Positions 1,877 through 27,583 of a stretch of DNA of 41,279 nucleotides are shown here, piece after piece; position 1 is the first letter of the stretch; each line of letters opens with the position of its first letter. The stretch is from a virus (taxonomy: Duplodnaviria; Caudoviricetes), in IMG/VR virus record IMGVR_UViG_3300020281_000049, positions 1 to 41,279 of that record; one strand, written 5' to 3'. The notes beneath the pieces were generated by a model. The model worked only from the letters and a program-made list of their open reading frames with translations, had not been told where the DNA came from and did no database searches. The position numbers were made by a program, and so were the translations under genes.

Positions 1877-2407
1877 ATGACATCATTAGAAACAGCAAAA
1901 ACAGCAGTCGATTTAGGTATCGATGGTCTTAAACAGCACTCAATGGCTGAGCTTAACGGCATGTATTGCAATATTGTCAAGGCACCTCAGGCGCCAAAGT
2001 TTAGTGACAAGACTGCTGCAGCCAAGCGTATTATCAAAATGGCTGAGCAGGCGTTAGCTAACGACATGGAGCGATCGGCTGAGTCGGAGGTTGGCAACTT
2101 GACATTAACACCGTCACCTGCCAAAATACCAGTCAAGGTCGGTAGGCCAAAAGCCAAGGCACGTGAGTATATGTTCTTATCTGAGTCATCTGAAGAGCAT
2201 ATTGCTGACGCCACCAAGCAGGCTCGTGATATACATCAGAACATGGTTCACAATGAGTGGATCCCAGAGTCTGAGGTACGTATCCATATCGAGGCTATGA
2301 AGGGCGAGGGCAAGCTGGTTACGACGCAATCATCATGGCGTATATTCCAGTATTATCGTGCGCAGCTTATCAATCGCAGCTTACTCAAAATGCGTAATGC
2401 TGAGTAA
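1877..2407 (+). CDS. Hypothetical protein, possibly DNA-binding; C-terminal domain paralogous to 3492..3716
   Basis: 176 aa ORF, strong RBS, AT-hook-like GRP linker, KQARDI motif shared with the paralogue. Confidence 0.8.
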   Translation: MTSLETAKTAVDLGIDGLKQHSMAELNGMYCNIVKAPQAPKFSDKTAAAKRIIKMAEQALANDMERSAESEVGNLTLTPSPAKIPVKVGRPKAKAREYMFLSESSEEHIADATKQARDIHQNMVHNEWIPESEVRIHIEAMKGEGKLVTTQSSWRIFQYYRAQLINRSLLKMRNAE

Positions 2408-2517: not shown

Positions 2518-3492
2518 ATGGCACATTTAGTTGAAACTATGGCGTATGCCGGTGAAGTCCCTTGGCACGGTTTAGGTACCAAGGTAGAAGATAATCTAAC
2601 CCCTCAAGAAATGATTGAGGCTGCAGGTTTAAATTGGACGGTATCAAGACGACCAGTCTTTGTACCTCAGGAGCCTGGCTATGATCACACTGAGGGCACA
2701 CTCACAACTACCGAGTTTGGTATGCTTGTGCGTGACTCTGACAATAGGATCTTAGGTCCTTGCGGCAGAAACTATATCCCTGCTCAGAACGAAGAGGTTT
2801 TTAGCTTTTTCAATAAGTTTGTAGAGTCAGGCGATATGACTATGGGCACAGCTGGTTCATTGGACAATGGCCGTCAGGTATGGGGTCTTGCTAATATAAA
2901 GCAAGGTTTCAAATTACCAGGTGGTGACGAGGTTCAAGGTCACTTGCTTATATCACACCCACATCAGTGGGGAAAATCCCTTACCATTATGTTCACTCCA
3001 GTCCGTGTCGTGTGTAACAACACATTGACTATGGCACTTGGGCAGCAAGGTGAGAGATTTAGAATGCCACACGTTAAGGCGTTCGATGCTGAGGTTGTTG
3101 CTGCAGCCGAGCAAGCATTAGGACTAGCTTCAGAGCAACTCGAGTCGTTCGAAGAGCAGTCTAAGTTCCTTGCTAGTAAGCAGTACAATGATGATCAATT
3201 TGATCGTTTTCTTGCTCAGCTTTTTCAACCAGCACTGATTGTTGACAACAAGGTGGATCGTACGCAATTCAATCGTACCTGTGAGAATGTACACGAGCTT
3301 GTGTATACTCAGCCAGGTGCCAAGATGAGCGAAGGTTCATGGTGGTCTGCTCTCAATGCTGTCACGTACTATGTAGATCATAAGGCTGGTCGTAACCGTG
3401 ACACTAGCCTGCAGTCTGCATGGTTTGGTCCACGAGCCGCAACTAAGCGTAAGGCTCTACAACTTGCCACGGAGATGGCGGAGGCTGCATAA
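2518..3492 (+). CDS. DUF932 / phage-plasmid-like (TIGR03299-type) protein
   Basis: Motifs MAH..ETMAY.GEVPWHGLG, AAGLNW, FTPVRVVCNNT, W.ALNAVT.Y.DH. Confidence 0.85.
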   Translation: MAHLVETMAYAGEVPWHGLGTKVEDNLTPQEMIEAAGLNWTVSRRPVFVPQEPGYDHTEGTLTTTEFGMLVRDSDNRILGPCGRNYIPAQNEEVFSFFNKFVESGDMTMGTAGSLDNGRQVWGLANIKQGFKLPGGDEVQGHLLISHPHQWGKSLTIMFTPVRVVCNNTLTMALGQQGERFRMPHVKAFDAEVVAAAEQALGLASEQLESFEEQSKFLASKQYNDDQFDRFLAQLFQPALIVDNKVDRTQFNRTCENVHELVYTQPGAKMSEGSWWSALNAVTYYVDHKAGRNRDTSLQSAWFGPRAATKRKALQLATEMAEAA

Positions 3493-3716
3493 TGCAAACT
3501 ACCTTCACTTTTGTGAAGTCATCAGACTCGTCCCTAGCCAAACAGGCTAGGGACATTCTTAATATTGTAGAAGCTAAAGGGTCAATAACAAAACAAGACC
3601 TGATACAGCAGATACAAGTTGACGTTAAATCGAAGCAAACTGCAGAGAGGCTGCTGTCATACTATAAGACAGCATTAATCTCTGACGGTTATATGGAAGA
3701 GAGGAAACATGGCTAA
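3492..3716 (+). CDS. Small hypothetical protein, possible winged-helix-like domain
   Basis: 74 aa ORF with TAATG coupling to the upstream gene; similar to the C-terminus of 1877..2407. Confidence 0.75.
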   Translation: MQTTFTFVKSSDSSLAKQARDILNIVEAKGSITKQDLIQQIQVDVKSKQTAERLLSYYKTALISDGYMEERKHG

Positions 3717-4548
3717 TGCTAGAGGAAAAAAGGTAGATACAACCTACCTTTCTATAGACAATGCCGAGGAGCGTGGGTTTCTACATAGAGACTATATCGC
3801 TCACTGTCTACGATGGTCACATGTTGTAAAGTATCTTGGCACAAGCCAAAGATATAAATCAGCACGTGTCCTCGATGTCGGCTGTGGCAAAGAGATGCCA
3901 CTATCGAAGCTGCTGCACTCATCACGTATGGGTACAGCGTGGTATGGCGCTGTCGATGTTGCACCACTGGTTACACCAGAGCAATTTCGTAATGCATCAT
4001 GGAAACCACATAAACTATGGTCTAAGACCGATGTATGCACATTGAAGCCAGACGATTTTGAGGCACCCCCTACAGCGATCGTCTGTTTTGAAGTTGCAGA
4101 ACATGTCGAGCCAGATCATTGTCGTCGTATGCTCGCTAAGTTTCATGAGCTACTCGAAGATGAGGGTCGTGTCTTTATCAGTACACCATGCTATGACGCC
4201 CATACCGGTGCTGCTGCAAACCATGTCAATGAGATGACGTACCAAGCATTTGGTGCTGCACTCGAAGATACTGGTTTCAGAGTCGAGGGTCATTGGGGCA
4301 CGTTTGCTAGTATGAAAGACTATAAAGACGAGCTCACGCCAGCACAACGTGAGGTATGGGATCAGTTACGTGACTATTATGACACTAACTACCTGTCCAC
4401 TGTGATGGCACCACTCGTACCGCAGCATAGTCGTAATGTGCTGTGGCAGTTAACCAAAGATCAATCATTGCCAAGACTATTTCCTAGTTTGAAAGATGTC
4501 GAAGGTATATGGGGATCATCAGAAGAATGGGAGAAACTATGTCCTTAA
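3709..4548 (+). CDS. Class I SAM-dependent methyltransferase (small-molecule / UbiG-like)
   Basis: Motif I VLDVGCG; IVCFEVAEHV; LLEDEGRVFISTP; no DPPY/NPPY or PCQ-ENV DNA-methyltransferase motifs. Confidence 0.85.
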   Translation: MANARGKKVDTTYLSIDNAEERGFLHRDYIAHCLRWSHVVKYLGTSQRYKSARVLDVGCGKEMPLSKLLHSSRMGTAWYGAVDVAPLVTPEQFRNASWKPHKLWSKTDVCTLKPDDFEAPPTAIVCFEVAEHVEPDHCRRMLAKFHELLEDEGRVFISTPCYDAHTGAAANHVNEMTYQAFGAALEDTGFRVEGHWGTFASMKDYKDELTPAQREVWDQLRDYYDTNYLSTVMAPLVPQHSRNVLWQLTKDQSLPRLFPSLKDVEGIWGSSEEWEKLCP

Positions 4549-4937
4549 CAAGTGACATACGTGAGTTCCATGAAAAGTTCGGGATGGAGTATGACGGGTT
4601 ACCTCGTAAGCTCTCTCCCGAGCTTCTAGAATTTCGCGTTAATTTTATAAAAGAAGAGTTGCTGGAATATTTGCAATCACACACATTGCACGACCAGCTT
4701 GATGCTCTTGTAGATTTAACCTATGTGATATTGGGCACAGCATATTTGCAAGGCTTTCCGTTTGAGGAAGCATGGTCAAGAGTGCATGCAGCCAATATGA
4801 AAAAAGTAAAAGGCCCATCAGAACGGTCAGACAAGTTTGATGTAATTAAACCAGAGGGATGGGAGCCACCAGATCTTACTGATCTATGTGGAGAACAAAT
4901 GGAGCTGTTTAATGATAATAATACTGGACGGTCCTGA
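4539..4937 (+). CDS. MazG-like / PRA-PH all-alpha NTP pyrophosphohydrolase
   Basis: FHEKFG, FIKEELLEY (EExxE), DALVDLTYV, VHAANMKK, KPEGWEPPDL. Confidence 0.88.
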   Translation: MSLTSDIREFHEKFGMEYDGLPRKLSPELLEFRVNFIKEELLEYLQSHTLHDQLDALVDLTYVILGTAYLQGFPFEEAWSRVHAANMKKVKGPSERSDKFDVIKPEGWEPPDLTDLCGEQMELFNDNNTGRS

Positions 4938-5898
4938 TGGTACTGGTAAAACTACGCTTGCTGAGCGTATGTGCACTGAGCTTAATGCTGAGTACCTGCA
5001 CCTTACATACCGATGGAAGGAACGGATCTTTGATTACCATACCGCTGCCATACGGTATGCTGCAAGAAAGCGTAGACCGATAGTCATCGATAGATGGTGG
5101 CCATCAGAAGCTGTATATGCCAAAGCATTTCGTGGCGGCAGTGACTGGCCCTTGCAAGGTCGTATGTGCGATCGTGTTGCTAAAAAGTTTGGCGTGATTT
5201 ACGTGTACTGCTTACCGGATGATGTACAGTCTGCAGTCGCAAACCACGCCGAGTTGAAGCAACAAAGGGAGGAAATGTATGAAGACATCGAAGCTGTTGC
5301 CGATCTTTATATTAAGCTATGGGACGGTGAAAGTACACATGAAGATAAGAACCAGTACATAGACCAAGTCATACGGCATGGCGGTATGGTTACACACCCT
5401 GATACAATCAAGTATACCATATCAGAGTGGGGTCATTGTATGGATCTATTTATCGAGCGTGTATGGGCACTTGCATCTGCATGGCGTCAGCTGCAGCTTC
5501 CTAAATTACTTGAGTATGATAATTGGAATATGCTTGGCCATGCTTCATGTGCAGAGTATCTAATTGTCGGCGAGCGTGTCAATCCTAAGTTTCGTGAATT
5601 GTACTGGCCTTTCTATGACTATGGCAACAGCAGTTTACACTTGACGCAAGCAATACATTCGCTTGAGCTCAAAGAGCATAACTTTATGTACGCTAATGCA
5701 TACAACCATGATGGATCACCTAACTGGCTGATTGATTATGTGATGCAGACATATAATAAAAAAATAATAACACTTGGTAAGCAGGCAGAAGACGCAGTCG
5801 CTCACCATACTATACATGCAGCCTTGCCGCATCCTTCGTATGCAAAGCGGTTCGGTAAAGTTGACATGGTGGAGGTAATGAAACATGCGATCTGTTAA
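4912..5898 (+). CDS. dNMP/thymidylate-kinase-like P-loop kinase fused to a C-terminal uracil-DNA-glycosylase-like domain
   Basis: IIILDGPDGTGKTT P-loop and VIDRWWPSE (TMK DR motif); C-terminal IVGER, YANA, IITLGKQA, LPHPSY (UDG-fold motifs). Confidence 0.82.
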   Translation: MIIILDGPDGTGKTTLAERMCTELNAEYLHLTYRWKERIFDYHTAAIRYAARKRRPIVIDRWWPSEAVYAKAFRGGSDWPLQGRMCDRVAKKFGVIYVYCLPDDVQSAVANHAELKQQREEMYEDIEAVADLYIKLWDGESTHEDKNQYIDQVIRHGGMVTHPDTIKYTISEWGHCMDLFIERVWALASAWRQLQLPKLLEYDNWNMLGHASCAEYLIVGERVNPKFRELYWPFYDYGNSSLHLTQAIHSLELKEHNFMYANAYNHDGSPNWLIDYVMQTYNKKIITLGKQAEDAVAHHTIHAALPHPSYAKRFGKVDMVEVMKHAIC

Positions 5899-6658
5899 TG
5901 CAGAATGGTATGCAGCACTTGATGACATCATTGCTCATGGTGCTAGCATAAAACCACGTGGCTTATCATGTCTTGAGTTATGTGGCTATCAAACCGTAGT
6001 TGATATGGAACACCCTATCTTGACTGTACCAGGCAGAAACATTGGCTATAAGTTTATGGCTGCTGAAGCTGCATGGATATTGTCAGGTGATAACCGTACC
6101 AGTACAATAACACCATATTCTCGTGAGATTGGTGGGTTCAGTGATGATGGTATCACTTATCATGGTGCGTATGGGCCCAAGATACGTGATCAGCTGCACT
6201 ATGTAGTTGACTGTCTTGGCAAAGATCCTGATACAAGACAAGCAGTAATAAATATTTGGCGTGAGAATCCGCCAGTAACCAAGGACGTGCCTTGCACGTT
6301 GTCTTTGCAGTGGGTGATACGGGAGGATACTATTCACTGCATCGACACAATGAGGTCATCTGATATATGGCTTGGCTGGCCTTATGATGTGTTTAATATG
6401 TCAATGATAACCCGTTACATTTTGTTGTATTTACGACAGGTGCATAGCAAGACTTATAAACTAGGTACATTAAGATTGACTGCCGGATCACAGCATTTGT
6501 ATACGATAAATCAGTCGGCTGTCATAAAGCTGCTGACTGAGACACGAGTTACAGACCATGTTGATTGGAGATTACCATTGTATGATCTTAGTGGACCTGA
6601 TGCGTTAACTAAATTTTTATGGGAGTGCGCAGAACATGGTACGCTCACGTCCCTGTAA
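5885..6658 (+). CDS. Thymidylate-synthase-fold enzyme, probable dCMP hydroxymethylase/methylase
   Basis: AEAAWILSG, DTRQAV, KDVPCT (catalytic Cys), MRSSDIWLGWPYD (Asp at the Asn177 specificity site), GSQHLY. Confidence 0.85.
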   Translation: MRSVNAEWYAALDDIIAHGASIKPRGLSCLELCGYQTVVDMEHPILTVPGRNIGYKFMAAEAAWILSGDNRTSTITPYSREIGGFSDDGITYHGAYGPKIRDQLHYVVDCLGKDPDTRQAVINIWRENPPVTKDVPCTLSLQWVIREDTIHCIDTMRSSDIWLGWPYDVFNMSMITRYILLYLRQVHSKTYKLGTLRLTAGSQHLYTINQSAVIKLLTETRVTDHVDWRLPLYDLSGPDALTKFLWECAEHGTLTSL

Positions 6659-7205
6659 GGATGAATATTTCCTCGCTATGGCTGTGCTTGTCGCAGCGCG
6701 TAGTACATGCAGCAGGCGTAGTGTCGGTTGTGTCTTGGTGGATAGTCGTAACCATGTTTTGGCTACTGGCTACAATGGTGTGGCTAGTGGTGTGGCCCAT
6801 TGTATTGACGAACCTTGCCCTGGCGCTGAGCTTCCTAGCGGGACTGGCCTCGATAAGTGCGAAGCCATTCATGCCGAACAAAATGCTATACTACAATGCA
6901 AGGACGTGGGAATTATTGAAACAGCGTATATCACGACAAGTCCGTGCCATACGTGTACGAAACTATTAATGAATACAGGCTGCAGCCGTATAGTCTTTCT
7001 CAAGGCGTATACGGATGTGAGTCCTAAAGAATTATGGAAAGGAGAGTGGATAGAGCATGGACCAATTAAGTATGTTTTTACCCAAAGCGAACTGGAAACC
7101 GCCAGCCGATCTACCAGACCTGAGCAAAGCAAAGGTAATATCATTGGACGTGGAAACAAGCGATCCAAACCTTCTAACCTCTGGTCCTGGTGGAGTAAGA
7201 AATGA
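6636..7205 (+). CDS. dCMP deaminase
   Basis: RSTC.RR.VGCVLV, TGYNG, HAEQNA and SPCHTC zinc motifs. Confidence 0.92.
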   Translation: MVRSRPCKDEYFLAMAVLVAARSTCSRRSVGCVLVDSRNHVLATGYNGVASGVAHCIDEPCPGAELPSGTGLDKCEAIHAEQNAILQCKDVGIIETAYITTSPCHTCTKLLMNTGCSRIVFLKAYTDVSPKELWKGEWIEHGPIKYVFTQSELETASRSTRPEQSKGNIIGRGNKRSKPSNLWSWWSKK

Positions 7206-8937
7206 CGGTAAACTCGTCGGGATCTCAGTATCAACGGACACTGGTTTTACAGGCTATTTCCCCATCGCTCACGAAGGAGGAGATAACCTTGACCGTAACA
7301 ATGTCCTCCGATGGGCACGCGATACCTTTGGAGGATCCCAAGATAAGGTTGGAGCAAACCTGCTCTACGATCTTGAATGGCTTAGATCAGAAGGGATACA
7401 AGTTAGTGGCAAGCTCAGAGATATACAAGTTGCCGAGCCCTTAATCAATGAGGAACGTGATGGCGGCTATAGTCTAAATAATCTTGCTAAGTATTATCTT
7501 AACGTAGAGAAAGATGAGAAGCTGTTGCGTGATGCAGCAAAGTCTTTTGGTGTAGATCCAAAGGGTGGTTTATGGAAGCTGCCTGCTAGGTATGTTGGCC
7601 CGTATGCAGAGGCTGATGCACGTCTTCCACTAGAGATATATGCTAAGCAAGAGAAGATCCTCAAAGAGCAAGGCTTATGGGATATATTCGAGCTCGAGTC
7701 TAGATTACTCAATGTTACACTAGACATGAGATTCAAGGGCGTACGTATTGACATAGATAAAGCTGAAATACTAAATGAAGATTGTTTAAGCAAGGAAGCC
7801 AAGCTGCTGACTGCCATACGCGATGAGTGTGGTCATGTAGTCGAGTGTTGGTCTGCTGATGACTTGTCAAAAGCATTTGATAAATTAAATATATGGTATC
7901 CACGTACACAGAAAGGCAATCCATCTTTTACTAGTGACTGGTTAAACGTACATGAGCATGAGTTTGCTAAGAAGGTAGCTGAGTGGCGTAAACTAAATAA
8001 GATGAGACGTGACTTTATCGAAGGTATATGTCTCAAGCAGCAGCACAATGGCAGGATACATGCACAGTTCCATGCCTTGCGTAAAGATGCTGATGGTACT
8101 CGCACTGGTAGATTTAGTTCATCGACTCCTAACCTGCAGCAGATACCTGCACGTGATCCATACTGGGGACCATTGATACGTGGTTTATTCTTGCCTGACG
8201 AAGGGCAGCAATGGGCTTGCCTTGATTACAGTCAACAGGAACCTAGAGTCTTGATGCATTATGCTGCCTTGCGTGGCTTGAAAGGTGCACAAGAAGCAGT
8301 TGATCAGTACAACAAAGATCCTGATACTGACTTCCACCAGATTGTAGCTGACATGGCAGGCATCGAACGTAAGCAAGCAAAGACTATTAATCTTGGTATG
8401 TTCTATGGCATGGGTATATACAAGCTGAGTACTGAATTAGGTATGCAGCAGTTTGAAGCCAAGCCTATCTTCGAGCAGTATCATAGTCGTGTACCATTTG
8501 TGCGTCAGCTAGCTCATGAGTGTACACGTGCTGCCAACAGCAAGGGATATATAAAGACTTTACTAGGCAGGCACAGACATTTCAATATGTTTGAACCAGC
8601 TGATAGTAGAAACACATGGCCAAACAGAGAGACACCATTGAACAGGGAAGCTGCAATGGAAGTATGGCAAGGCAGACCGTTACGTCGGTCGTTTACCCAT
8701 AAAGCTCTCAATGCTTTGATACAAGGCAGCAGTGCGGACATGACAAAGAAAGCTATGCTAGACTTATATGATGAAGGCGTAGTTGCACATATTACGGTAC
8801 ATGATGAGCTTGATTTTTCCGTCACAGACAGTGTACAAGCGAACAAATACCGTGATATAATGGAAGACTGCGTGGACCTTAAGTTACCACTCAAGGTCGA
8901 CGTAGAATTAGGCCCCACATGGGGTGATATAAAATAG
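7057..8937 (+). CDS. polA: Family A DNA polymerase with 3'-5' exonuclease domain
   Basis: Exo DVET, YD and YAEAD; TGRFSS..PNLQQIP; motif A DYSQQEPR; motif B RKQAKTINLGMFYG; motif C VHDEL. Confidence 0.96.
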   Translation: MDQLSMFLPKANWKPPADLPDLSKAKVISLDVETSDPNLLTSGPGGVRNDGKLVGISVSTDTGFTGYFPIAHEGGDNLDRNNVLRWARDTFGGSQDKVGANLLYDLEWLRSEGIQVSGKLRDIQVAEPLINEERDGGYSLNNLAKYYLNVEKDEKLLRDAAKSFGVDPKGGLWKLPARYVGPYAEADARLPLEIYAKQEKILKEQGLWDIFELESRLLNVTLDMRFKGVRIDIDKAEILNEDCLSKEAKLLTAIRDECGHVVECWSADDLSKAFDKLNIWYPRTQKGNPSFTSDWLNVHEHEFAKKVAEWRKLNKMRRDFIEGICLKQQHNGRIHAQFHALRKDADGTRTGRFSSSTPNLQQIPARDPYWGPLIRGLFLPDEGQQWACLDYSQQEPRVLMHYAALRGLKGAQEAVDQYNKDPDTDFHQIVADMAGIERKQAKTINLGMFYGMGIYKLSTELGMQQFEAKPIFEQYHSRVPFVRQLAHECTRAANSKGYIKTLLGRHRHFNMFEPADSRNTWPNRETPLNREAAMEVWQGRPLRRSFTHKALNALIQGSSADMTKKAMLDLYDEGVVAHITVHDELDFSVTDSVQANKYRDIMEDCVDLKLPLKVDVELGPTWGDIK

Positions 8938-17434: not shown

Positions 17435-17890
17435 TCACTCAACTAAACCCTCTTTGGGAATTTTTGTTTTGACTGCATCCCATTCGGTAACTAGGTTATC
17501 TAGATCCGCCGGCAGTTTTTCACCACCTGCCTTTTTCTCTTTAAAATACTTAAGAATAGAGTCTAGCTGATCCGTGACATCAGGATATAACATAGCCCTT
17601 TCCATCGCATGTCGATTATTGCCAGGTGATGCTTCAAACAACGCTTTCATTTTTGCGTCTTTACTTAAATCTACTACTTTACAATCTATTTCTTTGTCTT
17701 GCTCTGGTATCTCATAGCCGTCCATAACTATACCAAAGTGTAATCCTTCTTCTGGATTGTAGCCAAGATGAATAAAAGATATTTGTGCACCTGGTGATGA
17801 CTTGTCATCAGGCTCTTTACCAGGACCAGGATCAGGAGCTATAAAGCATTTTGTCTCGTGATCTTTATATGTTATATATTGTTTTGCCAT
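17435..17890 (-). CDS. Hypothetical tail-fibre-associated protein
   Basis: R...YPDVTDQLD...W.AVK.KIPK C-terminal motif; coupled to the RCC1 gene. Confidence 0.7.
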   Translation of the reverse strand: MAKQYITYKDHETKCFIAPDPGPGKEPDDKSSPGAQISFIHLGYNPEEGLHFGIVMDGYEIPEQDKEIDCKVVDLSKDAKMKALFEASPGNNRHAMERAMLYPDVTDQLDSILKYFKEKKAGGEKLPADLDNLVTEWDAVKTKIPKEGLVE

Positions 17891-19737
17891 TATGCATTTC
17901 CGTTTAATTGACCATTCATTAGGGTCGGGTTATCATTAACATACCAACTGTTGTTATCCCAAGAGTGGTAGTAACCTGTGTGATACAGAGCACCATCTTC
18001 AAATAAGTAGTAGATAGTACCGCCATCTGAGCCGCTATCACCACACCACGTCTGTACAACCTTGCCATGTTTTTCGTATGGTAGGTGTGGCGTAGTCCAG
18101 TAATAATAGTTGCTGCCTTGTCTATATCTTTGCCATTGGTTATTACGGCCTGTAACCCAGACAGTACCGTCATTCAATAAAGCTACTAGGTAGTTAGTAG
18201 ATCCCCAGCCACCAGATCGTATGTCAACACAATAACGCTTTGCGCTAAACAACTGTTTACCGTTCCAGGTACTAGCCCAATCAAATAAAATTTCATAAAC
18301 TCCGTTATAAGTACTGCTTGACCTGTTGCTGCCAAGCTGACCATAACCAGAGTAACCTGCACCCCACAGTTTATTATCTTCTGTTCTTACATATATCTGA
18401 CCATACTGACCGCCAGTTGCCCAAACGTCTTTGGCCAAACCTTTAGATCCTGAGGGTCCAAAGTGCGAGTCTAGAGCTGTGTGGTTATTTGTACCTGATG
18501 TAGATCCTGACATGATTTGTCCATAGCCAGAGTAACCGCCAGTCGATACTGTACCATCATCATACAAGTAAATTGAATGACATACATCACCATTGGCAGA
18601 TGCTGCAATCTTTATACACTTCTTACCGACGTTAGTTGTACCTGAACCATTATGGCCACAAGGCACAAAGTATGTTTGATTATTACCATGAGCATATTGC
18701 ATCTGATAATATGAATTACGTCCTGCTGCCCAAACTAATCCATCTTCGTCAATATACCAAACAGTACCATATTGGCCATTTGTCTCTTTAACATAGACAG
18801 CGTCCTCTACATACTGTACTCCTGACTCTCCGCTCTTAGGACCTCGTGCACATTTTCTAGGGCCATACGTATAGGAATTGCTGCTTGTACTATTGTTAAC
18901 GCCAACTTGACCATAGCCATTATAACCCCAGCCCCACAGTGAACCATCATCGCATAAGGCATGAAATGACAAAGCTGAATCTGATTGTTCGCCAGAGCTA
19001 CTAAACTGAATTACTTTTCTTGGCTTATCAGTAACAGTGTTCCAGTAAAGTCTTTCGTAGTGATTAGCTGACGCGCCAGGGTAAGTATAACTCCAGCCAA
19101 CTACACGTAAAGATGCTCGGTTCGAGGTGGCTTGATCTCCTACCTGTCCGTGTCCATTATAACCATTAGCCCACAGAATGCCATTAGCAGTTAGGAACAT
19201 ATTGGTATATCCCATGTATATACCAACAATCCGCATGCCGGTCTTACCTTCAGCCATGTGTTCACGTAAGTCATAGCCAGTCCAAGTGCTAGGAATATCA
19301 TCTTTTGATATATTTCCAATCATAATCTGACGTAGTACATCTCCGTTGATACTTACCCATTGCATCGGCGAGTGTACACTAGCACCGTTATAGTCCCATG
19401 AGCTATGGTTACCAGCACCTTTATCTGAGTATTGATTAACACCCATCATGGCAATAGAATAGCCGTCATTAACTACAAAGGCATATTGTGAGTCAGCGCC
19501 CTGCTGATCATTAGTTATAGTGTGACGCCAGTTCTTACTACTTCGTTTGTTAATGTTGTGGACGATATTATATAGGCTTTTACTCTTAGCTGCTTGATCA
19601 CCATACAGTGGCCTGCTTCCAGGAAGAAGCTGGACTTTCATAAATTGACCGCCGCCTCCTGATGAAGGAACAAAGCTGCTTCCTCCAGCGGAAGCAACTT
19701 TTTTAGGAAGGTCGACTGTTATGGTGTTGTTAGCCAT
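17890..19737 (-). CDS. RCC1-like repeat beta-propeller, probable tail / receptor-binding protein
   Basis: Repeats GYNGHGQVG, GYNGYGQVG, GRNSYYQ, GYSGYGQI, GYSGYGQLG, GRNNQWQ. Confidence 0.85.
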   Translation of the reverse strand: MANNTITVDLPKKVASAGGSSFVPSSGGGGQFMKVQLLPGSRPLYGDQAAKSKSLYNIVHNINKRSSKNWRHTITNDQQGADSQYAFVVNDGYSIAMMGVNQYSDKGAGNHSSWDYNGASVHSPMQWVSINGDVLRQIMIGNISKDDIPSTWTGYDLREHMAEGKTGMRIVGIYMGYTNMFLTANGILWANGYNGHGQVGDQATSNRASLRVVGWSYTYPGASANHYERLYWNTVTDKPRKVIQFSSSGEQSDSALSFHALCDDGSLWGWGYNGYGQVGVNNSTSSNSYTYGPRKCARGPKSGESGVQYVEDAVYVKETNGQYGTVWYIDEDGLVWAAGRNSYYQMQYAHGNNQTYFVPCGHNGSGTTNVGKKCIKIAASANGDVCHSIYLYDDGTVSTGGYSGYGQIMSGSTSGTNNHTALDSHFGPSGSKGLAKDVWATGGQYGQIYVRTEDNKLWGAGYSGYGQLGSNRSSSTYNGVYEILFDWASTWNGKQLFSAKRYCVDIRSGGWGSTNYLVALLNDGTVWVTGRNNQWQRYRQGSNYYYWTTPHLPYEKHGKVVQTWCGDSGSDGGTIYYLFEDGALYHTGYYHSWDNNSWYVNDNPTLMNGQLNGNA

Positions 19738-21549: not shown

Positions 21550-24065
21550 TATCTTACTCCTTCGAACAGCCTATCGCCGCCACCGTATGGAATTGCTCTA
21601 GAGGGTGGCATAAAGAAACGCTGATCATTTTCAGTCATTATACGCTGTTCTAAACGAGAAAGATACCCCGGATTTACAAATTCTTGTAACTGGTACAAAA
21701 ATAAGTAATCTATGGCCATTCTAGTATAGAAAACATTAATAAACGGGGTGTTATCTTTTGCTAATTTTATTAGGTTAGCAGCAACATCTTCCCCGTTACG
21801 AGCCCTTGTCCATAGTTCTGCTACCGCGTCAATCTGACCAAAGGTAGGTCCTGCCAAGGTTGACAAGAAACTACGACCAAATCTATTATATTCACCAAAT
21901 AAGAAGTCACCATATATACCTAGACCTCCACCTTGTACCATGGCTGCTAATGCTGTTGAATAACTAAACTCTCTTGGCGATCTGCCTTTTAGCATATCCT
22001 TAGCCATCATAGCGCCGTAACCAAACACAGTACTCATAACTAGTAGTTGAGTAATTCCTGTTATATCAGCTTTACCATTAGCTTGCCCGTATACTTCTCG
22101 TCCTAAACCTCTACGTACAATAGTAACAGGGAATGATTTAAACTGCATAAGCAGCCTATACATCTCACCCGTTGCTGTACCGGCTACAGATCCCTGGTTC
22201 ATGATCGCTCGTTCTCTAGCGCCAGGCATTGGAATGCCATAATCAGCACGATCAATATAAAATGAGTCAAGCATAGTCATTAGATCATTTTTAGCATCTG
22301 CTATAGTTCTAGCATTAAATACACTCTTGCCTTTAGATTTCATGTAGCCTTTGACTATATCATCGCTAATATCTTCTAGGCCCTCACTAACCATAAAGTT
22401 GCCTTGATTATTACCAGCATCTTTTACTGCATGGTTTCTGTATAGTTCCCACTCAAGATCTTCAATACCATATTGCTTTAATACATTCTGAAGCCTAGGT
22501 CCAAGCTGCTTGTAACTAAGATTAGCGTTGTCTGCTAGATTAGCACTCATCATTAATGCCATACCAGTACGATGAGAATCGTTCCACCAGCTCATTAAGT
22601 TTATCTTAAAAAACTTTTGCTGAGCTTTTGCTGCCATACCAGGTAATTGATCGTTAGCATGAAACCTGCTCATTAGATCACCTGTGATTCCATCAAAGCC
22701 AACACCCAATGCTCTTGCTATCTGTCTTTGTTCCTTATTTCCTCGGCCGCGGAATAAATTCCTAAAGGCATTTGTATAACCTGACATTAGGCCTTTACCT
22801 TGATACCTTAACTCCGCTGCCTGATAAGGAATATCAGTTATAGCTGAAATGGTTGCACCACCTAGTTTTGATAGGTTTGCGATAACTCTAGTAATAGCAC
22901 CAATACGCGCTAGATTTGGACTAGCAATCATACGAGCAGAGCCGTCTAGCTCTTGATATAAGTTTTTAATTTTTTGACTTTTAAATAAATCTGACTGCTT
23001 TGTATCACCTTTCTTAATTGTACGATCTCGATATTCAGCTACTAAGTCGTCTAGCATTGACTGTGGATTAGTACCAAGATTTCTCATTAAAGCTGTATTA
23101 TGAGCGTGGTGCTGCAAACCATTAATAATACCTTCTCTAAGATCTCCCGTTCCTACTGCTCTGTTATATTCCATAAATGAAGCAGAGTCTTTAAAATGCA
23201 ATAGTCTTTCAGCACTAGCTTTTTTACCTAGATTAGCGTAACCTTTAAAACCATTTAAGTGCATTGCTGTATCGTCAGCAGCGCCAGCAGCTTTTCTATG
23301 TATACCTGCTGCTAAACCTCTATAAGCACCTTGTAAAAACTTTTTAGGATCAGCACCCTTAAAAGTCTTTTTATCAAGTAGTGGCATGATAAATTCAATC
23401 CACTCATCTTCGCCCATCTTCCTGATTTTAATCATGTCGTGGCTTTGACGCATAATATAACCAGGATATGACTTAATATAAGATCCTGCTAAATTAGAAT
23501 TCTTAACGGCTAGCTCTTGTATAGCATGTATCTTTTCAGCAATACGTCTTGCTGCAGCATTCTTAGTTACGCCTGGATTACCGCCTGGTTTAAGTTCCCA
23601 CAATTCAGCAGCAATGTCATCATCAAACTTTCCGCCTTTCATAAACAAGCGAAGATCGCCGTGCTCATTATCTAGATCTTTAATTATCTTGCCAATGTAT
23701 TTATTTGCAAGAGACTTGCCTTGTGTATCAATACTTAATTTAGACTTGTGTGAAGACTCAAGAGTACCACCAAGTAACGACATAATACCTAAGTGAGGAT
23801 TATCAAACTTATCTAAAAAATTACGGGCCCTTGCTTTAGCCAAGGCATTAATAATCTTATTACGCTTTTCTATTTTAGCAGCAAGCATAGAGTCACTTAA
23901 CTGTTGAGTCAAGTGCGTCATAAGCTCCTGATCTACATTATCTGCATTTTTAACATTTGTAATAAACTCATCGATTTCTTCCAGCATCTTCATTGCTGCG
24001 TCATCATCGATAGTTCCGCTCTTATTAGCTTTCTTAATAACAGCGATACATTTTTGTATACTCAT
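21549..24065 (-). CDS. Internal virion (ejection) protein
   Basis: Start MSIQKC with ATGA overlap; C-terminal QFKSFP, QGGGLGIYGDFLF and NPGYLSR motifs; position before the tail fibre. Confidence 0.8.
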   Translation of the reverse strand: MSIQKCIAVIKKANKSGTIDDDAAMKMLEEIDEFITNVKNADNVDQELMTHLTQQLSDSMLAAKIEKRNKIINALAKARARNFLDKFDNPHLGIMSLLGGTLESSHKSKLSIDTQGKSLANKYIGKIIKDLDNEHGDLRLFMKGGKFDDDIAAELWELKPGGNPGVTKNAAARRIAEKIHAIQELAVKNSNLAGSYIKSYPGYIMRQSHDMIKIRKMGEDEWIEFIMPLLDKKTFKGADPKKFLQGAYRGLAAGIHRKAAGAADDTAMHLNGFKGYANLGKKASAERLLHFKDSASFMEYNRAVGTGDLREGIINGLQHHAHNTALMRNLGTNPQSMLDDLVAEYRDRTIKKGDTKQSDLFKSQKIKNLYQELDGSARMIASPNLARIGAITRVIANLSKLGGATISAITDIPYQAAELRYQGKGLMSGYTNAFRNLFRGRGNKEQRQIARALGVGFDGITGDLMSRFHANDQLPGMAAKAQQKFFKINLMSWWNDSHRTGMALMMSANLADNANLSYKQLGPRLQNVLKQYGIEDLEWELYRNHAVKDAGNNQGNFMVSEGLEDISDDIVKGYMKSKGKSVFNARTIADAKNDLMTMLDSFYIDRADYGIPMPGARERAIMNQGSVAGTATGEMYRLLMQFKSFPVTIVRRGLGREVYGQANGKADITGITQLLVMSTVFGYGAMMAKDMLKGRSPREFSYSTALAAMVQGGGLGIYGDFLFGEYNRFGRSFLSTLAGPTFGQIDAVAELWTRARNGEDVAANLIKLAKDNTPFINVFYTRMAIDYLFLYQLQEFVNPGYLSRLEQRIMTENDQRFFMPPSRAIPYGGGDRLFEGVR

Positions 24066-27000
24066 GCGGCACCTCTTACGCAAACAGCTGCAGCTTTAGC
24101 GGCTTCGTATATATCGTTAACTTGCGCTACTGCGTCGTCTGCTTCTTTATTTATATTATCAAGTTCTTTTGTAACTGCTTTAATATATTTAGGATCCATG
24201 TTAGGCATCTCAGCATTTATCTGCTCTACAAGATCATTGATAGCTTGTTCTTGCTCGGCCATATCTTTCGATACATTAGGCAGCAAAGTTTCTTTTGTCT
24301 GATTAGGATTAGTTTGTAGATCTATATCAGCATCGTCTATATCAGCGGTAGAATTAGATTTATTAGCGTTGTACTTTTTAGCAATCTGTATAGACTGCTG
24401 CATCGGTACTTTTGCAGGTAATTTTTCTCCTGGCAGCATAGCATCTACTTCAACAAAACTGCCTTTATTAGTATTAACTACACTTTTTACGACAAAGGTA
24501 GTATCATGAGGTAGAATTACTTCTGACTCACTTTTACCAAATGACCAATGTTTATTTTCACCAGCATATAAAGCTGGCATACCTTTTTTAAGGTTAATTT
24601 TTAATTTAACATCACTGCTGCTGCCAAACGAAAAAGCCTTACCTCTATATAATCCTGTAGATAGGAAACCGCTTAATTTAAACTGGCCTCCTATCATCAT
24701 TTTAGCAGTACCAGCATCTGTTGCTGGATTACCTTTTAGACTTAAACCATTGACACCGTTCAAGGCGGTATAAGGGGTACCCCCACGCCAAACACTAATT
24801 TCTTGAGGTAATGTGTTCTTCTTAATAGCCGCATCTAGTATCCCCGTGTACTTGTTAAGGACCTCTTTTGTTTGTGCCGGTGTTGGTTCATCAATGCCTA
24901 CATATTTACCAACCATTTTTGCATAGCCATGAGCTTCATTAGGGCTCATTTTTCCACGCAGCCAGTTATTCATCCATGCATAACTGCTGCCAGTATAGTT
25001 TTTAAGTATTTTACCTTCTTGTACTGTTAGTTTTGTTTCTTGCGCGTCATTCATTTTAGTCAGTGCTTTTTTAGCAGATGACAAGCTGTTAGCTACAATC
25101 GTACCTTTTTTAGTTGACGTAGCTTGTTGTGTACGTAAAAAGTCAGTGCTGTATTCTGTTAATGCCTGACGTCTATTTGTAATTAAGGATTTTAATTTAG
25201 TTGCATTTTCAGGTGTAAAATCTAGAATATCAATAATTGCATTTATTTCTGATTGATCTGTTTCAAATATTCTTGCTGCAGCAAACTGGGCTTTCTTTAT
25301 AAACTCTGCTTGTGATAAACCAGTAGCTTCAAATACTTTAAATGTAGTAGGATTCTTTTTAGGATCTAGCATAGACTTTATTTCATCTATAGCCATCTCA
25401 TTAATATTTTTAGTTCCGCCTTGAGCTCTAAATATTAACGCCCCACCTGGATCGATACGTATAACATTGCCATTTGGCATTTGCATAATATTAAAGTTAG
25501 GTGCATTACCGACAACATCCCAGTTACCTAGGAACATATCGACAATTAAGTCATCAGCAAACTGCTGCTTAACTTCAGCAGGTAATTTAGCAAAATCGTC
25601 TGGCGTAATCATCTTAGCGCCAGGTACTATCTTAGAGGCTATACCTACAATTTCACCGTTTGAATTACCAACTAGCTTTGGCTCAGGGAATGCAACACCA
25701 AACATTCTATATAGTGTAGCAGCTAAAAACTCGTTCTTAGCAGCCTGTATATCTTTAGGATACTTAACATAATACTGTTGGCCTGTAGCAGCATCTGTAA
25801 AGAAGCCACCTTTTTGTGTACCAGCTTGATCTCCTGTTTGCTGTAAATTTGTATCTAAAAGTTGTTCATCAAATTGTGGTGATTTATTTTCTGGTAAAAA
25901 TTCACCTTCGTCAAATTTAGTCATAGCTTGATCAACGGCATTCTTACCAGATGGCATAGAGTCGCTGAATGCTATAATCTTAGGATCGCCAGAAAATAAT
26001 TTTACTGCTTCGCTAGGTGCTGCCACTACCACATTATTCTGGTTCATCTTTGGATTAAATACGGCATTGTCTATATCAATGAGGTGTGTAATCTCACCTT
26101 CATCAAATTTTACAGAGGCCTTATATTTAATATCAGATGCAGCCATATCTACGCCATGCATCAGCATAGACATGTGTGCCTTTTCTCCAAGCTCTAGTGG
26201 ATCACCTGCTTTACTTCCTATCTGTTCTTCATCAAAAAGACGTAACGGTCCTTCTTCACCTCGAACAAGGATAAAGTCACCATTTTGATTTTTGATACGA
26301 AATGCAATTTTGTTTTTAGCACCCGCTTTAGTAGCAGCTTCAACTGCTTCTTGATATTCAGTGCTTTGCGCTAAGGCATTTTTTAATTTAACGCCACTTA
26401 ACGGTGCAGCTTTTTCTCCTGCTCTTACTAATTCTAAAGACTCAGTTGTATTTGCATGCGGCTTATATTCTGCCGTTGCCCCTTTAACAACTGGTCCATC
26501 TGAGTCACCTTGATTAACACGCTGTACTGGCGAGTTAGCATCGCTTCCAGGTGCTGCCGGTGCATCAGGATCATTAGTTGGTGTCTTTACTTGTACATCA
26601 TCTCCATGGTGCACGATAGGACTAACCTCGACACTATCACCATTTGCAGCTTGTCTAACTGCTGTATTAAATGCTTTACCGTGACGTTTAGATCTTACAT
26701 ACTTGATACCATCTACTACGCTACCGCCCACAACATGCAGTCCGCCACCTAATACAGTACCAAATGTTATATTCATAAATGATTGAGCTAACCCGTAATC
26801 AGCTTGCTCTTGTGTAGCAGCACCATAAATTAAAGGCTCAACTGCGACTGATCCATAAAAACCAGCCATACCACCTGTAACGGCTCTTGTACCTAATTTG
26901 GATCCGGTAAGGCCTAAAGCACCGACCACTCTAGCACCGCCAAGGGGAGGAATAAAAAACAGTGGGATACTAACTGGATCGACTAAAGCCATGCCAAGCT

Positions 27001-27583
27001 CTAGGCCCATACCTTTCCAAAACTGCGCCCCATAAGCATTGTCAAGAGCGTAGTTAAACTTTATTTCTTGTTCTTTTCTTTCTTTTAAAACGTGAGCTTC
27101 TAAATTAGAAATAGGCTCTGAAAATTTTAGTTGGCCATCAATACCATATACTTCGTTAGCTTCTTCTGGCTCTAATATTTTTACATCTGGGTTAGCATTA
27201 AAGAAATCTGGATACTTTTCTTTTAGTGCATCTGTAGTAATACCAATATTTTTAATCCCTGAACCTGGCTCTGGCATACCAGCATAAGGAGCTACACCCA
27301 TAAGTCCTGGTGTACCGCCCATTGGCATTGGCTGATATGACTGAGCATAAGCGCCGCTGTTTGCCCAATTGTCATATTCAGATCTTTCCTCAGCTGTAGC
27401 ACCGGCAAAAGATCTAATATTAGATATTTCACCTAGACGGTCTAATGAATTAAAACCTGTATAACGCCAGCCTCTATCTTTTGCTTGTTCCGTAACTGTA
27501 TCACCAGTAGCAGCAAGTAAATCCAAGCCCATTATATTTGTAAATTCTGGGTTATATGATTTATTATATTTTATAAAACTCAT
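24062..27583 (-). CDS. Internal virion protein carrying HipA/PI3K-like kinase and ADP-ribosyltransferase domains
   Basis: Hydrophobic ejection-protein N-terminus; kinase YYVK, KNE, GNWD, RIDPG; ART YT..Y..MN.WLR, VWRG, FLST, ESEVILP. Confidence 0.82.
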   Translation of the reverse strand: MSFIKYNKSYNPEFTNIMGLDLLAATGDTVTEQAKDRGWRYTGFNSLDRLGEISNIRSFAGATAEERSEYDNWANSGAYAQSYQPMPMGGTPGLMGVAPYAGMPEPGSGIKNIGITTDALKEKYPDFFNANPDVKILEPEEANEVYGIDGQLKFSEPISNLEAHVLKERKEQEIKFNYALDNAYGAQFWKGMGLELGMALVDPVSIPLFFIPPLGGARVVGALGLTGSKLGTRAVTGGMAGFYGSVAVEPLIYGAATQEQADYGLAQSFMNITFGTVLGGGLHVVGGSVVDGIKYVRSKRHGKAFNTAVRQAANGDSVEVSPIVHHGDDVQVKTPTNDPDAPAAPGSDANSPVQRVNQGDSDGPVVKGATAEYKPHANTTESLELVRAGEKAAPLSGVKLKNALAQSTEYQEAVEAATKAGAKNKIAFRIKNQNGDFILVRGEEGPLRLFDEEQIGSKAGDPLELGEKAHMSMLMHGVDMAASDIKYKASVKFDEGEITHLIDIDNAVFNPKMNQNNVVVAAPSEAVKLFSGDPKIIAFSDSMPSGKNAVDQAMTKFDEGEFLPENKSPQFDEQLLDTNLQQTGDQAGTQKGGFFTDAATGQQYYVKYPKDIQAAKNEFLAATLYRMFGVAFPEPKLVGNSNGEIVGIASKIVPGAKMITPDDFAKLPAEVKQQFADDLIVDMFLGNWDVVGNAPNFNIMQMPNGNVIRIDPGGALIFRAQGGTKNINEMAIDEIKSMLDPKKNPTTFKVFEATGLSQAEFIKKAQFAAARIFETDQSEINAIIDILDFTPENATKLKSLITNRRQALTEYSTDFLRTQQATSTKKGTIVANSLSSAKKALTKMNDAQETKLTVQEGKILKNYTGSSYAWMNNWLRGKMSPNEAHGYAKMVGKYVGIDEPTPAQTKEVLNKYTGILDAAIKKNTLPQEISVWRGGTPYTALNGVNGLSLKGNPATDAGTAKMMIGGQFKLSGFLSTGLYRGKAFSFGSSSDVKLKINLKKGMPALYAGENKHWSFGKSESEVILPHDTTFVVKSVVNTNKGSFVEVDAMLPGEKLPAKVPMQQSIQIAKKYNANKSNSTADIDDADIDLQTNPNQTKETLLPNVSKDMAEQEQAINDLVEQINAEMPNMDPKYIKAVTKELDNINKEADDAVAQVNDIYEAAKAAAVCVRGAA

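Follow-up and report, generated by a model that had tools for sequence, protein, structure and literature searches.

A phage family of SAM methyltransferases as probable tailoring enzymes of hydroxymethyl-pyrimidine pathways, with the acceptor proposed from genome context

The gene at positions 3709-4548 (+) of the phage genome analysed here encodes a probable tailoring enzyme of phage hydroxymethyl-pyrimidine pathways, the acceptor of which we infer from genome context. On balance, we favour the view that this SAM-dependent methyltransferase O-methylates 5-hydroxymethylcytosine (hmC), giving 5-methoxymethylcytosine. A wider proposal, which we hold more tentatively, is that its family consists of metal-dependent nucleobase O-methyltransferases making 5-methoxymethylcytosine (in this phage and in phages AXL3 and PW916) and 5-methoxymethyluracil (in a subfamily linked to 5-hydroxymethyluracil, hmU), as a sugar-free alternative to glycosylation. 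The window, i.e., the whole stretch of DNA analysed, is an entire virus record of 41,279 bases (41.7% GC, estimated to be 100% complete), whose structural arm, podovirus-like, lies on the minus strand and whose replication arm lies on the plus strand.

The open reading frame begins with ATG, encodes 279 amino acids, and is a real and conserved class I SAM methyltransferase. It matches Pfam Methyltransf_23 (PF13489) with 52 bits, over the 27-bit cut-off, and contains the four motifs reported in an initial annotation of this DNA: VLDVGCG, the SAM-binding motif I (residues 54-60; 3868-3888, +), FEVAEHV (residues 127-133; 4087-4107, +), GRVFISTP (residues 153-160) and NHVNE (residues 171-175; 4219-4233, +). 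Across an alignment of 133 diverse rows (family representatives of at least 230 amino acids), E128, E131, H132, S158-T159-P160, H172 and E175 are 98-100% conserved (E131 and H132 in every row, E128 and H172 in 132, E175 in 131), and D56, G58, C59 and G60 of motif I are kept in 124-127 of 129 rows. Conserved residues specific to the family are H26-R27-D28, H32, R35, G197-T198-F199 and R242-N243. An AlphaFold model, made from P0001 (E175D relative to the window protein), has a pLDDT of 92.2 and a class I Rossmann fold.

The initial annotation had set this enzyme apart from the DNA methylases, noting the lack of NPPY/DPPY and PCQ/ENV, and a motif scan of the protein bore this out: [ND]PP[YFW], SPP[YF], PCQ and ENV are all absent. 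We rejected an N6-adenine or N4-cytosine DNA methylase, since [DNS]PP[YFW] is missing and there is no such Pfam, NCBIfam or PHROG match, and a C5-cytosine DNA methylase, since PCQ and ENV are missing, the cysteine of STPC is variable and PF00145 is not matched. Because C161 is less than 70% conserved and is replaced by N in the hmU-linked subfamily, the single PC pair of the protein (STPCY, P160-C161) is not the catalytic PC of a C5-methylase. Generic class I methyltransferases, and no DNA methylase, appear among the profile and fold matches listed.

A fold search with the model returned 4htf (an E. coli methyltransferase, CmoM/SmtA, which acts on a tRNA carboxyl group; Z 18.7, rmsd 4.2, 210 aligned residues), ChlM (Z 18.5, rmsd 2.7, 187 aligned), HEN1 as the third match of the wide search (Z 17.4, rmsd 2.6, 185 aligned) and UbiG (Z 16.0, rmsd 3.2, 193 aligned). 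These best matches are O- or carboxyl-O-methyltransferases, all within about 3 Z units, and because they are nearly tied the fold names no substrate. A search of the PDB with the single sequence gave no match, and the best PDB match by profile was a protein lysine methyltransferase (E 2e-7).

The designation of the enzyme as UbiG-like in the initial annotation holds at the level of fold and motif, in that motif I, ExxEH and ST are shared with the quinone O-methyltransferases UbiG and Coq3, but not at the level of membership: The score against the UbiG model TIGR01983 (27.7 bits) is far under the cut-off of 102.95, the phage family is viral, a quinone context is absent, and the metal-ligand pattern matches Hen1 as well. 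Membership of bacterial Hen1 was also rejected, since TIGR04074 gave 15.9 bits against a cut-off of 340 and was matched only at model positions 266-397 of 462. A profile comparison with the catalytic domains of nine actinobacterial Hen1 proteins (hhalign 98%, E 8e-14) nevertheless pairs FEVxEH with EVIEH, STP with TTP, and NHVNE with DHRFE, placing E128, E131, H132 and H172 on the four metal ligands of this small-RNA 2'-O-methyltransferase. According to the available text of PMC10781085, the E, E, H and H residues of Hen1 bind Mg2+ together with the substrate hydroxyls and activate the hydroxyl. The pattern ExxEH...STP...HxxE is not specific, being found in 12/52 distant bacterial matches, with ExxEH also in UbiG; this weakens the case for hmC, and the motif set marks a broad, probably metal-dependent, O-methylating clade and not Hen1 itself. 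Also against hmC as acceptor, the substrates of Hen1 and UbiG are vicinal diols or catechols, and hmC has only a single primary alcohol to offer.

In contrast to Hen1, the phage protein is single-domain, has no RNA-repair partner, occurs in a setting of pyrimidine biosynthesis, and has motifs of its own (HRD..AH..RW, GTFAS, P..SRN..W). If the enzyme were a Hen1 proper, it would methylate the 2'-O of an RNA 3' end (of a tRNA or a repaired RNA) or else a by-product at the ribonucleotide level, e.g., hm-CMP. The four aligned ligands and the rank of HEN1 in the fold search speak for such a role, as does the finding that the closest solved relative of the neighbouring thymidylate synthase (TS) homolog is MilA, which uses CMP. 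We regard it as quite improbable, given the TIGR04074 score, the acidity of the protein (net charge -7, pI 5.9; family median -4), the deoxy-preferring Ser167 of the TS homolog, and the lack of a Pnkp or RNA ligase among the annotated window ORFs; and RNA methylation would leave the strict association with hydroxymethylases, described below, unexplained.

The methyltransferase ORF overlaps both flanking ORFs, and a run of enzyme genes on the plus strand starts with it (annotated in a comparison of 30 window ORFs with Pfam and 44 with PHROGs). Next is a dNTP pyrophosphatase of the MazG/PRA-PH family (4509-4937; PF01503, 42.9 bits; phrog_671), a predicted dCTPase with an in-frame ATG at 4539 that overlaps the end of the methyltransferase; in P0253, one of 14 longer homologs scanned, the methyltransferase is fused to such a PRA-PH (MazG) domain. 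It is followed by a dNMP kinase (4888-5898; phrog_761, thymidylate kinase, 1e-14), a TS homolog predicted to be a dCMP hydroxymethylase (5885-6658; PF00303; best PDB match the CMP hydroxymethylase MilA, 2e-19), a dCMP deaminase family protein (6636-7205; PF00383, 78 bits) and a family A DNA polymerase, PolA (7057-8937; PF00476, 219 bits). The tail of the kinase (5500-5898, +) weakly resembles a UDG domain (PF03167, E 0.005, below cut-off), and a free-standing UDG-family ORF occurs in locus L244.

The start of the methyltransferase is overlapped by a 74-residue ORF (3492-3716, +), possibly helix-turn-helix-like (weak Atlas leads, 0.85-0.87) and limited to certain lineages: It lies directly upstream of the methyltransferase in 43/80 close loci and in 0/28 AXL3-like and 0/78 distant loci. 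It is not a universal partner, and it has no usable alignment with the upstream protein of AXL3 (hhalign 1.8%). It clusters with the ORF at 1877-2407 (+), and both may be helix-turn-helix-like. The early region has more terminator-like hairpins than expected (20, against 6.3 in shuffles), e.g., at 976-1003, 1221-1257, 1420-1451, 2416-2435 and 3530-3554, and one lies inside the 74-residue ORF. In the structural arm, a 1173-residue predicted internal virion protein (24062-27583, -) carries an ADP-ribosyltransferase domain at its C-terminus (PF03496, 73 bits; Alt-like PHROG) and is probably injected into the bacterial host, and a tail-region protein (17890-19737, -) contains RCC1 repeats. Palindromic 4-mers have observed/expected ratios of 0.80-1.26 in the window, with no clear avoidance.

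In the TS homolog, residues D134, C137, S158, D160 and D168 correspond to D143, C146, S167, D169 and D177 in E. coli numbering. By the rules given in the available text of PMC13326640, D177 indicates dCMP as substrate, an acidic residue at 143 correlates with a hydroxymethyl over a methyl product, L143 likewise being only said to correlate with product, and N169 occurs in all tested 5-hydroxy-dCMP synthases; S167 signifies a preference for deoxyribose in TS homologs, as stated in the consulted portion of PMC5175136. These rules predict a dCMP hydroxymethylase, and S167 ruled out a preference for ribo-CMP. The dependence of the hydroxymethylase call on residue rules is itself a point against hmC as the acceptor.

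Very little probability attaches to the alternative that the TS homolog makes 5-methyl-dCMP or 5-hydroxy-dCMP instead of hm-dCMP, the hydroxy product of which would lead to 5-methoxycytosine. When tested, TS homologs that neighbour deaminase, PRA-PH and PolA genes gave 5mdCMP in 5/7 cases, according to the available part of a preprint (bioRxiv 10.1101/2024.12.05.627091), and the putative metal site would suit an aminophenol-like 5-hydroxycytosine; but D143, the hydroxymethyl-type residue, and D169 are present in the window and in 165/165 readable partners. Because D169 is kept, a 5-hydroxy-dCMP substrate is unlikely, and the D169N change of the 5-hydroxy-dCMP pathway of RB69 and DLP3 (PMC13326640, as far as its text was available) is not present. 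The initial annotation had tied the methyltransferase to a modified pyrimidine; the tie to the pathway is upheld by genome context, but not the 5-hydroxy-dCMP option, so that hm-dCMP, hm-dCTP and hmC-DNA are the candidate substrates left from its list.

The association between the two genes was examined at 187 viral loci anchored on the methyltransferase, with a TS homolog sought within the fetched flank. One was found at 166, of which 165 read D143/C146/S167/D169/D177 and the remaining one is truncated; most of the 21 loci without it end within 2 kb of the gene, and in the four genomes followed up over their whole length, a TS outside the flank shows this signature too. Several TS clades are represented among the partners, including one near the T4 gp42 type with a motif almost identical to that of gp42 itself. 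Divergent TS was present in 49/49 whole methyltransferase-bearing records (43 chosen via the methyltransferase and six via a TS search, all for length), with canonical ThyA additionally in two. Given the ThyA of these two records and the ThyX encoded by AXL3 and PW916 (as stated in the available text of PMC7504290 and PMC9414467), the divergent TS does not simply supply dTMP. An unusual combination occurs at L600 (G202), where a TS with a dUMP-hydroxymethylase-like scaffold (GAYGT) has Asp at 177 and a family methyltransferase lies 14 kb away.

A sample anchored on PolA, taken from 4/64 parts of the collection and comprising its best 80 loci, included 34 with at least 4.5 kb upstream: Both genes were found at eight, TS only at 11, neither at 15, and the methyltransferase only at none (Fisher p 0.0045, for loci that are not independent). 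In 18/18 records picked for having no methyltransferase locally (11 further loci being left out), including the complete pelagiphages HTVC200P and HTVC119P, the TS clade is present and the methyltransferase absent from the whole record. The dependence is one-way, phages with this TS clade being viable when they have no methyltransferase. In the two pelagiphages (L112, L113), the annotated thymidylate synthases carry the hm-dCMP clade signature with a kinase adjacent, which suggests that these are cultured pelagiphages with modified cytosine.

If the substrate were instead a protein of host or phage, or some small metabolite, outside the base pathway, the enzyme would be only co-regulated with the nucleotide genes. 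The fold matches to generic small-molecule methyltransferases, the best PDB match by profile, and the 5-14 kb that separate the methyltransferase from TS in some genomes are compatible with this. We consider it improbable, given that no case of the methyltransferase alone occurred among the 49 genomes and 34 PolA-anchored loci, across podovirus and siphovirus backbones and several TS clades, and given the MazG fusion and the exchange with a glycosyltransferase described below.

TS loci were collected with alignments, the window TS as a single query having yielded only nine. Some of those lacking the methyltransferase have glycosyltransferase-like, epimerase, PLP-enzyme or C5-methylase-like genes, and many have no recognisable tailoring gene nearby; because of the latter, the absence of glycosyltransferases is by itself weak evidence. 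Genome-wide profile searches of the 49 methyltransferase genomes found none with the TET-associated glycosyltransferase (TAGT; positive control detected), a carbamoyltransferase, PF00534 (of which the added viral control record likewise had no match) or the glycosyltransferase-like gene of the methyltransferase-less loci (control detected), and no glycosyltransferase was found among the 30 and 44 window ORFs scanned, although divergent ones could escape such a scan. Linkage counts throughout are phylogenetically non-independent.

Certain methyltransferase-less loci merit separate mention. A glycosyltransferase-like protein (phrog_14998), a sugar epimerase and an atypical C5-methylase-like gene accompany dCMP hydroxymethylases at L192:3846-9432, L229:3167-5109, L274:6646-9256 and L244:4254-5552, which are candidates for another hmC hypermodification. 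The gene in the methyltransferase slot of L192, L229 and L274 has no Pfam match, a model pLDDT of 49, and only weak full-length matches to glycosyltransferases (E 1.5e-3 at best), so its glycosyltransferase-like character is a lead only. In T7-like phages with this TS clade, at L150:1058-3787 and related loci, a block of three genes (an uncharacterised phrog_13881 protein, a second uncharacterised gene and a PLP enzyme) lies upstream of a MazG-like gene.

That the common handle is a hydroxymethyl group is indicated by a distant methyltransferase subfamily, homologous over its full length (hhalign 99.6%, E 5e-24) and sharing the family-specific motifs; aligned by profile, it is only 22% identical with the query family. 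Six of the eight PolA-anchored loci with both genes belong to this subfamily, in which the neighbour is a dUMP-type hydroxymethylase (GAYGAN, N177, D143). A dedicated scan recovered 80 such loci from one lineage (at least 60% identity), with TS in 78 and N177 read in 74 of these. The gene order at L452:5408-6271 and L520-L599 is fixed, i.e., methyltransferase, a gene with PF18723 (5-hmdU DNA kinase helical domain), dUMP hydroxymethylase (N177), a small conserved ORF and PolA; the PF18723 gene is adjacent in 80/80 of the hmU-type loci, and TAGT in 0/80. Within the same TS clade of the PolA-anchored sample, TAGT was present at 0/6 methyltransferase loci versus 9/12 others (p 0.009). Because the subfamily flanks dUMP-type synthases, the shared feature is the C5-CH2OH and not the C4 amine; and because members are found with hm-dCMP synthases as well as with hm-dUMP synthases, in alternation with a glycosyltransferase, the family acts most simply on the 5-hydroxymethyl oxygen. 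L452-type loci are candidates for a methylated hmU pathway.

The frequency of the PF18723 gene also allows for a different atom or intermediate of the same pathway: The methyl group could go to a kinase-added phosphate on the hydroxymethyl (a methyl phosphodiester cap), to the N4 amine, or to a group added by an unrecognised enzyme. In the available text of PMC8989533, 5-HMUDKs phosphorylate the hydroxymethyl in DNA; the PF18723 gene occurs in every hmU-type locus, in 6/80 distant loci and in 4/49 genomes of the mostly hmC-type set, where another acceptor than the free hydroxyl may therefore exist, and carboxyl methyltransferases are among the best fold matches. Such a target is possible but, in our estimate, unlikely, since 45/49 genomes are without PF18723 and no match was found among the window ORFs scanned with Pfam; N4-methylation, in particular, is inapplicable to the uracil-linked subfamily, and the PPY motif is absent.

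Under the favoured reading, in which the hydroxyl of hmC is methylated, the cassette (MazG-type pyrophosphatase, dNMP kinase, TS with the hm-dCMP signature, dCMP deaminase and PolA, as read from its sequence) would operate by analogy with T4-type pathways: dCTP would be destroyed, and dCMP would be converted to hm-dCMP, phosphorylated, and polymerised in place of C. The residues E128, E131, H132 and H172 would hold Mg2+ or Mn2+ and activate the 5-CH2OH, to which SAM would donate the methyl group. Because the protein is acidic and single-domain, is fused to MazG in one homolog, and is encoded where it is in the operon, methylation of the free nucleotide is slightly favoured over methylation in DNA. 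Capping of the hydroxyl may serve to conceal hmC from modification-dependent nucleases without loss of resistance to ordinary restriction, and would cost SAM instead of nucleotide sugar. As expected for bulk use of SAM, a gene with a SAM-synthetase domain (PF00438) adjoins the methyltransferase in 9/80 distant loci, e.g., at L388:12572-13390, between methyltransferase and TS.

The hmC pathway of T4 comprises the dCTPase gp56, the dCMP hydroxymethylase gp42, the kinase gp1, a dCMP deaminase and glucosyltransferases. At the level of protein families, the window has likenesses to it in the pyrophosphatase, the kinase, the D143/D177 TS homolog and the deaminase beside a phage polymerase, and some members of the methyltransferase family adjoin near-gp42 enzymes; it differs in that no glucosyltransferase was found, a SAM methyltransferase occupies the tailoring position, and the hosts of the pathway are small podo- and siphoviruses with PolA. 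The 5hmC carbamoyltransferase pathway of MetaGPA (PMC8670742, main text) likewise joins TS(Asp177), PRA-PH and dCMP deaminase to one group-transfer enzyme acting on 5-CH2OH, but the transferase here is a class I methyltransferase, and methyltransferases are unmentioned in that main text. The thymidine hypermodification systems of M6, ViI and PaMx11 resemble the hmU-linked loci in having a dUMP hydroxymethylase and a PF18723 gene, but the available text of PMC8989533 lists no class I methyltransferase among their tailoring enzymes, and the window TS is of the dCMP type. In the portions of the literature examined, the caps that pyrimidine hypermodifications place on the C5 hydroxyl are sugars, phosphate/amino acids or carbamoyl.

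The family, as we find it, is uncharacterised and almost exclusively viral, in line with the initial annotation's view of this gene as the likeliest novel enzyme of the cluster. Searches identified 1237 homologs among 1993 candidates, with 328 representatives (clusters at 50% identity) at E<=1e-30. A scan of 185,579 prokaryote species genomes gave full-length members at only 10/62 loci, all of them MAG contigs, and 9/10 among the Atlas matches listed are 95-100% viral. Members occur on both podovirus and siphovirus backbones, and the only matches in 50,697 phage records, five in number, come from Stenotrophomonas phage AXL3 (twice), Pseudoxanthomonas phage PW916 and two spring-virome genomes. 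In each of these four genomes, the genes are arranged as methyltransferase, NTP pyrophosphatase, kinase, TS and deaminase. No account of the family or of 5-methoxymethylcytosine was found in the main texts of the open literature searched, and an earlier prediction is possible; O-methyltransferases near phage dioxygenases are mentioned without detail in the available text of PMC13229309.

The cultured phage AXL3 provides an experimental point of contact. Its DNA was resistant to 35 of 37 restriction enzymes, the two that cut both having A/T-only sites, and its authors left the modification unidentified and interpreted the cluster as one for thymidylate synthesis (PMC7504290, as far as its text was available). 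This resistance fits a modified C, and hmC alone would explain it.

If 5-hydroxymethylcytosine is indeed the acceptor, its methyl ether would add a new base to those of nature, and a Hen1-like active site would have a new reaction in a DNA pathway, in a family that spans hundreds of uncultured phage lineages. The modification of AXL3, a cultured therapy candidate, would then have a name, and the success of such phages against hmC-dependent restriction could be predicted. The enzyme could also become a SAM-based tool to label or protect 5hmC and 5hmU in epigenetic sequencing.
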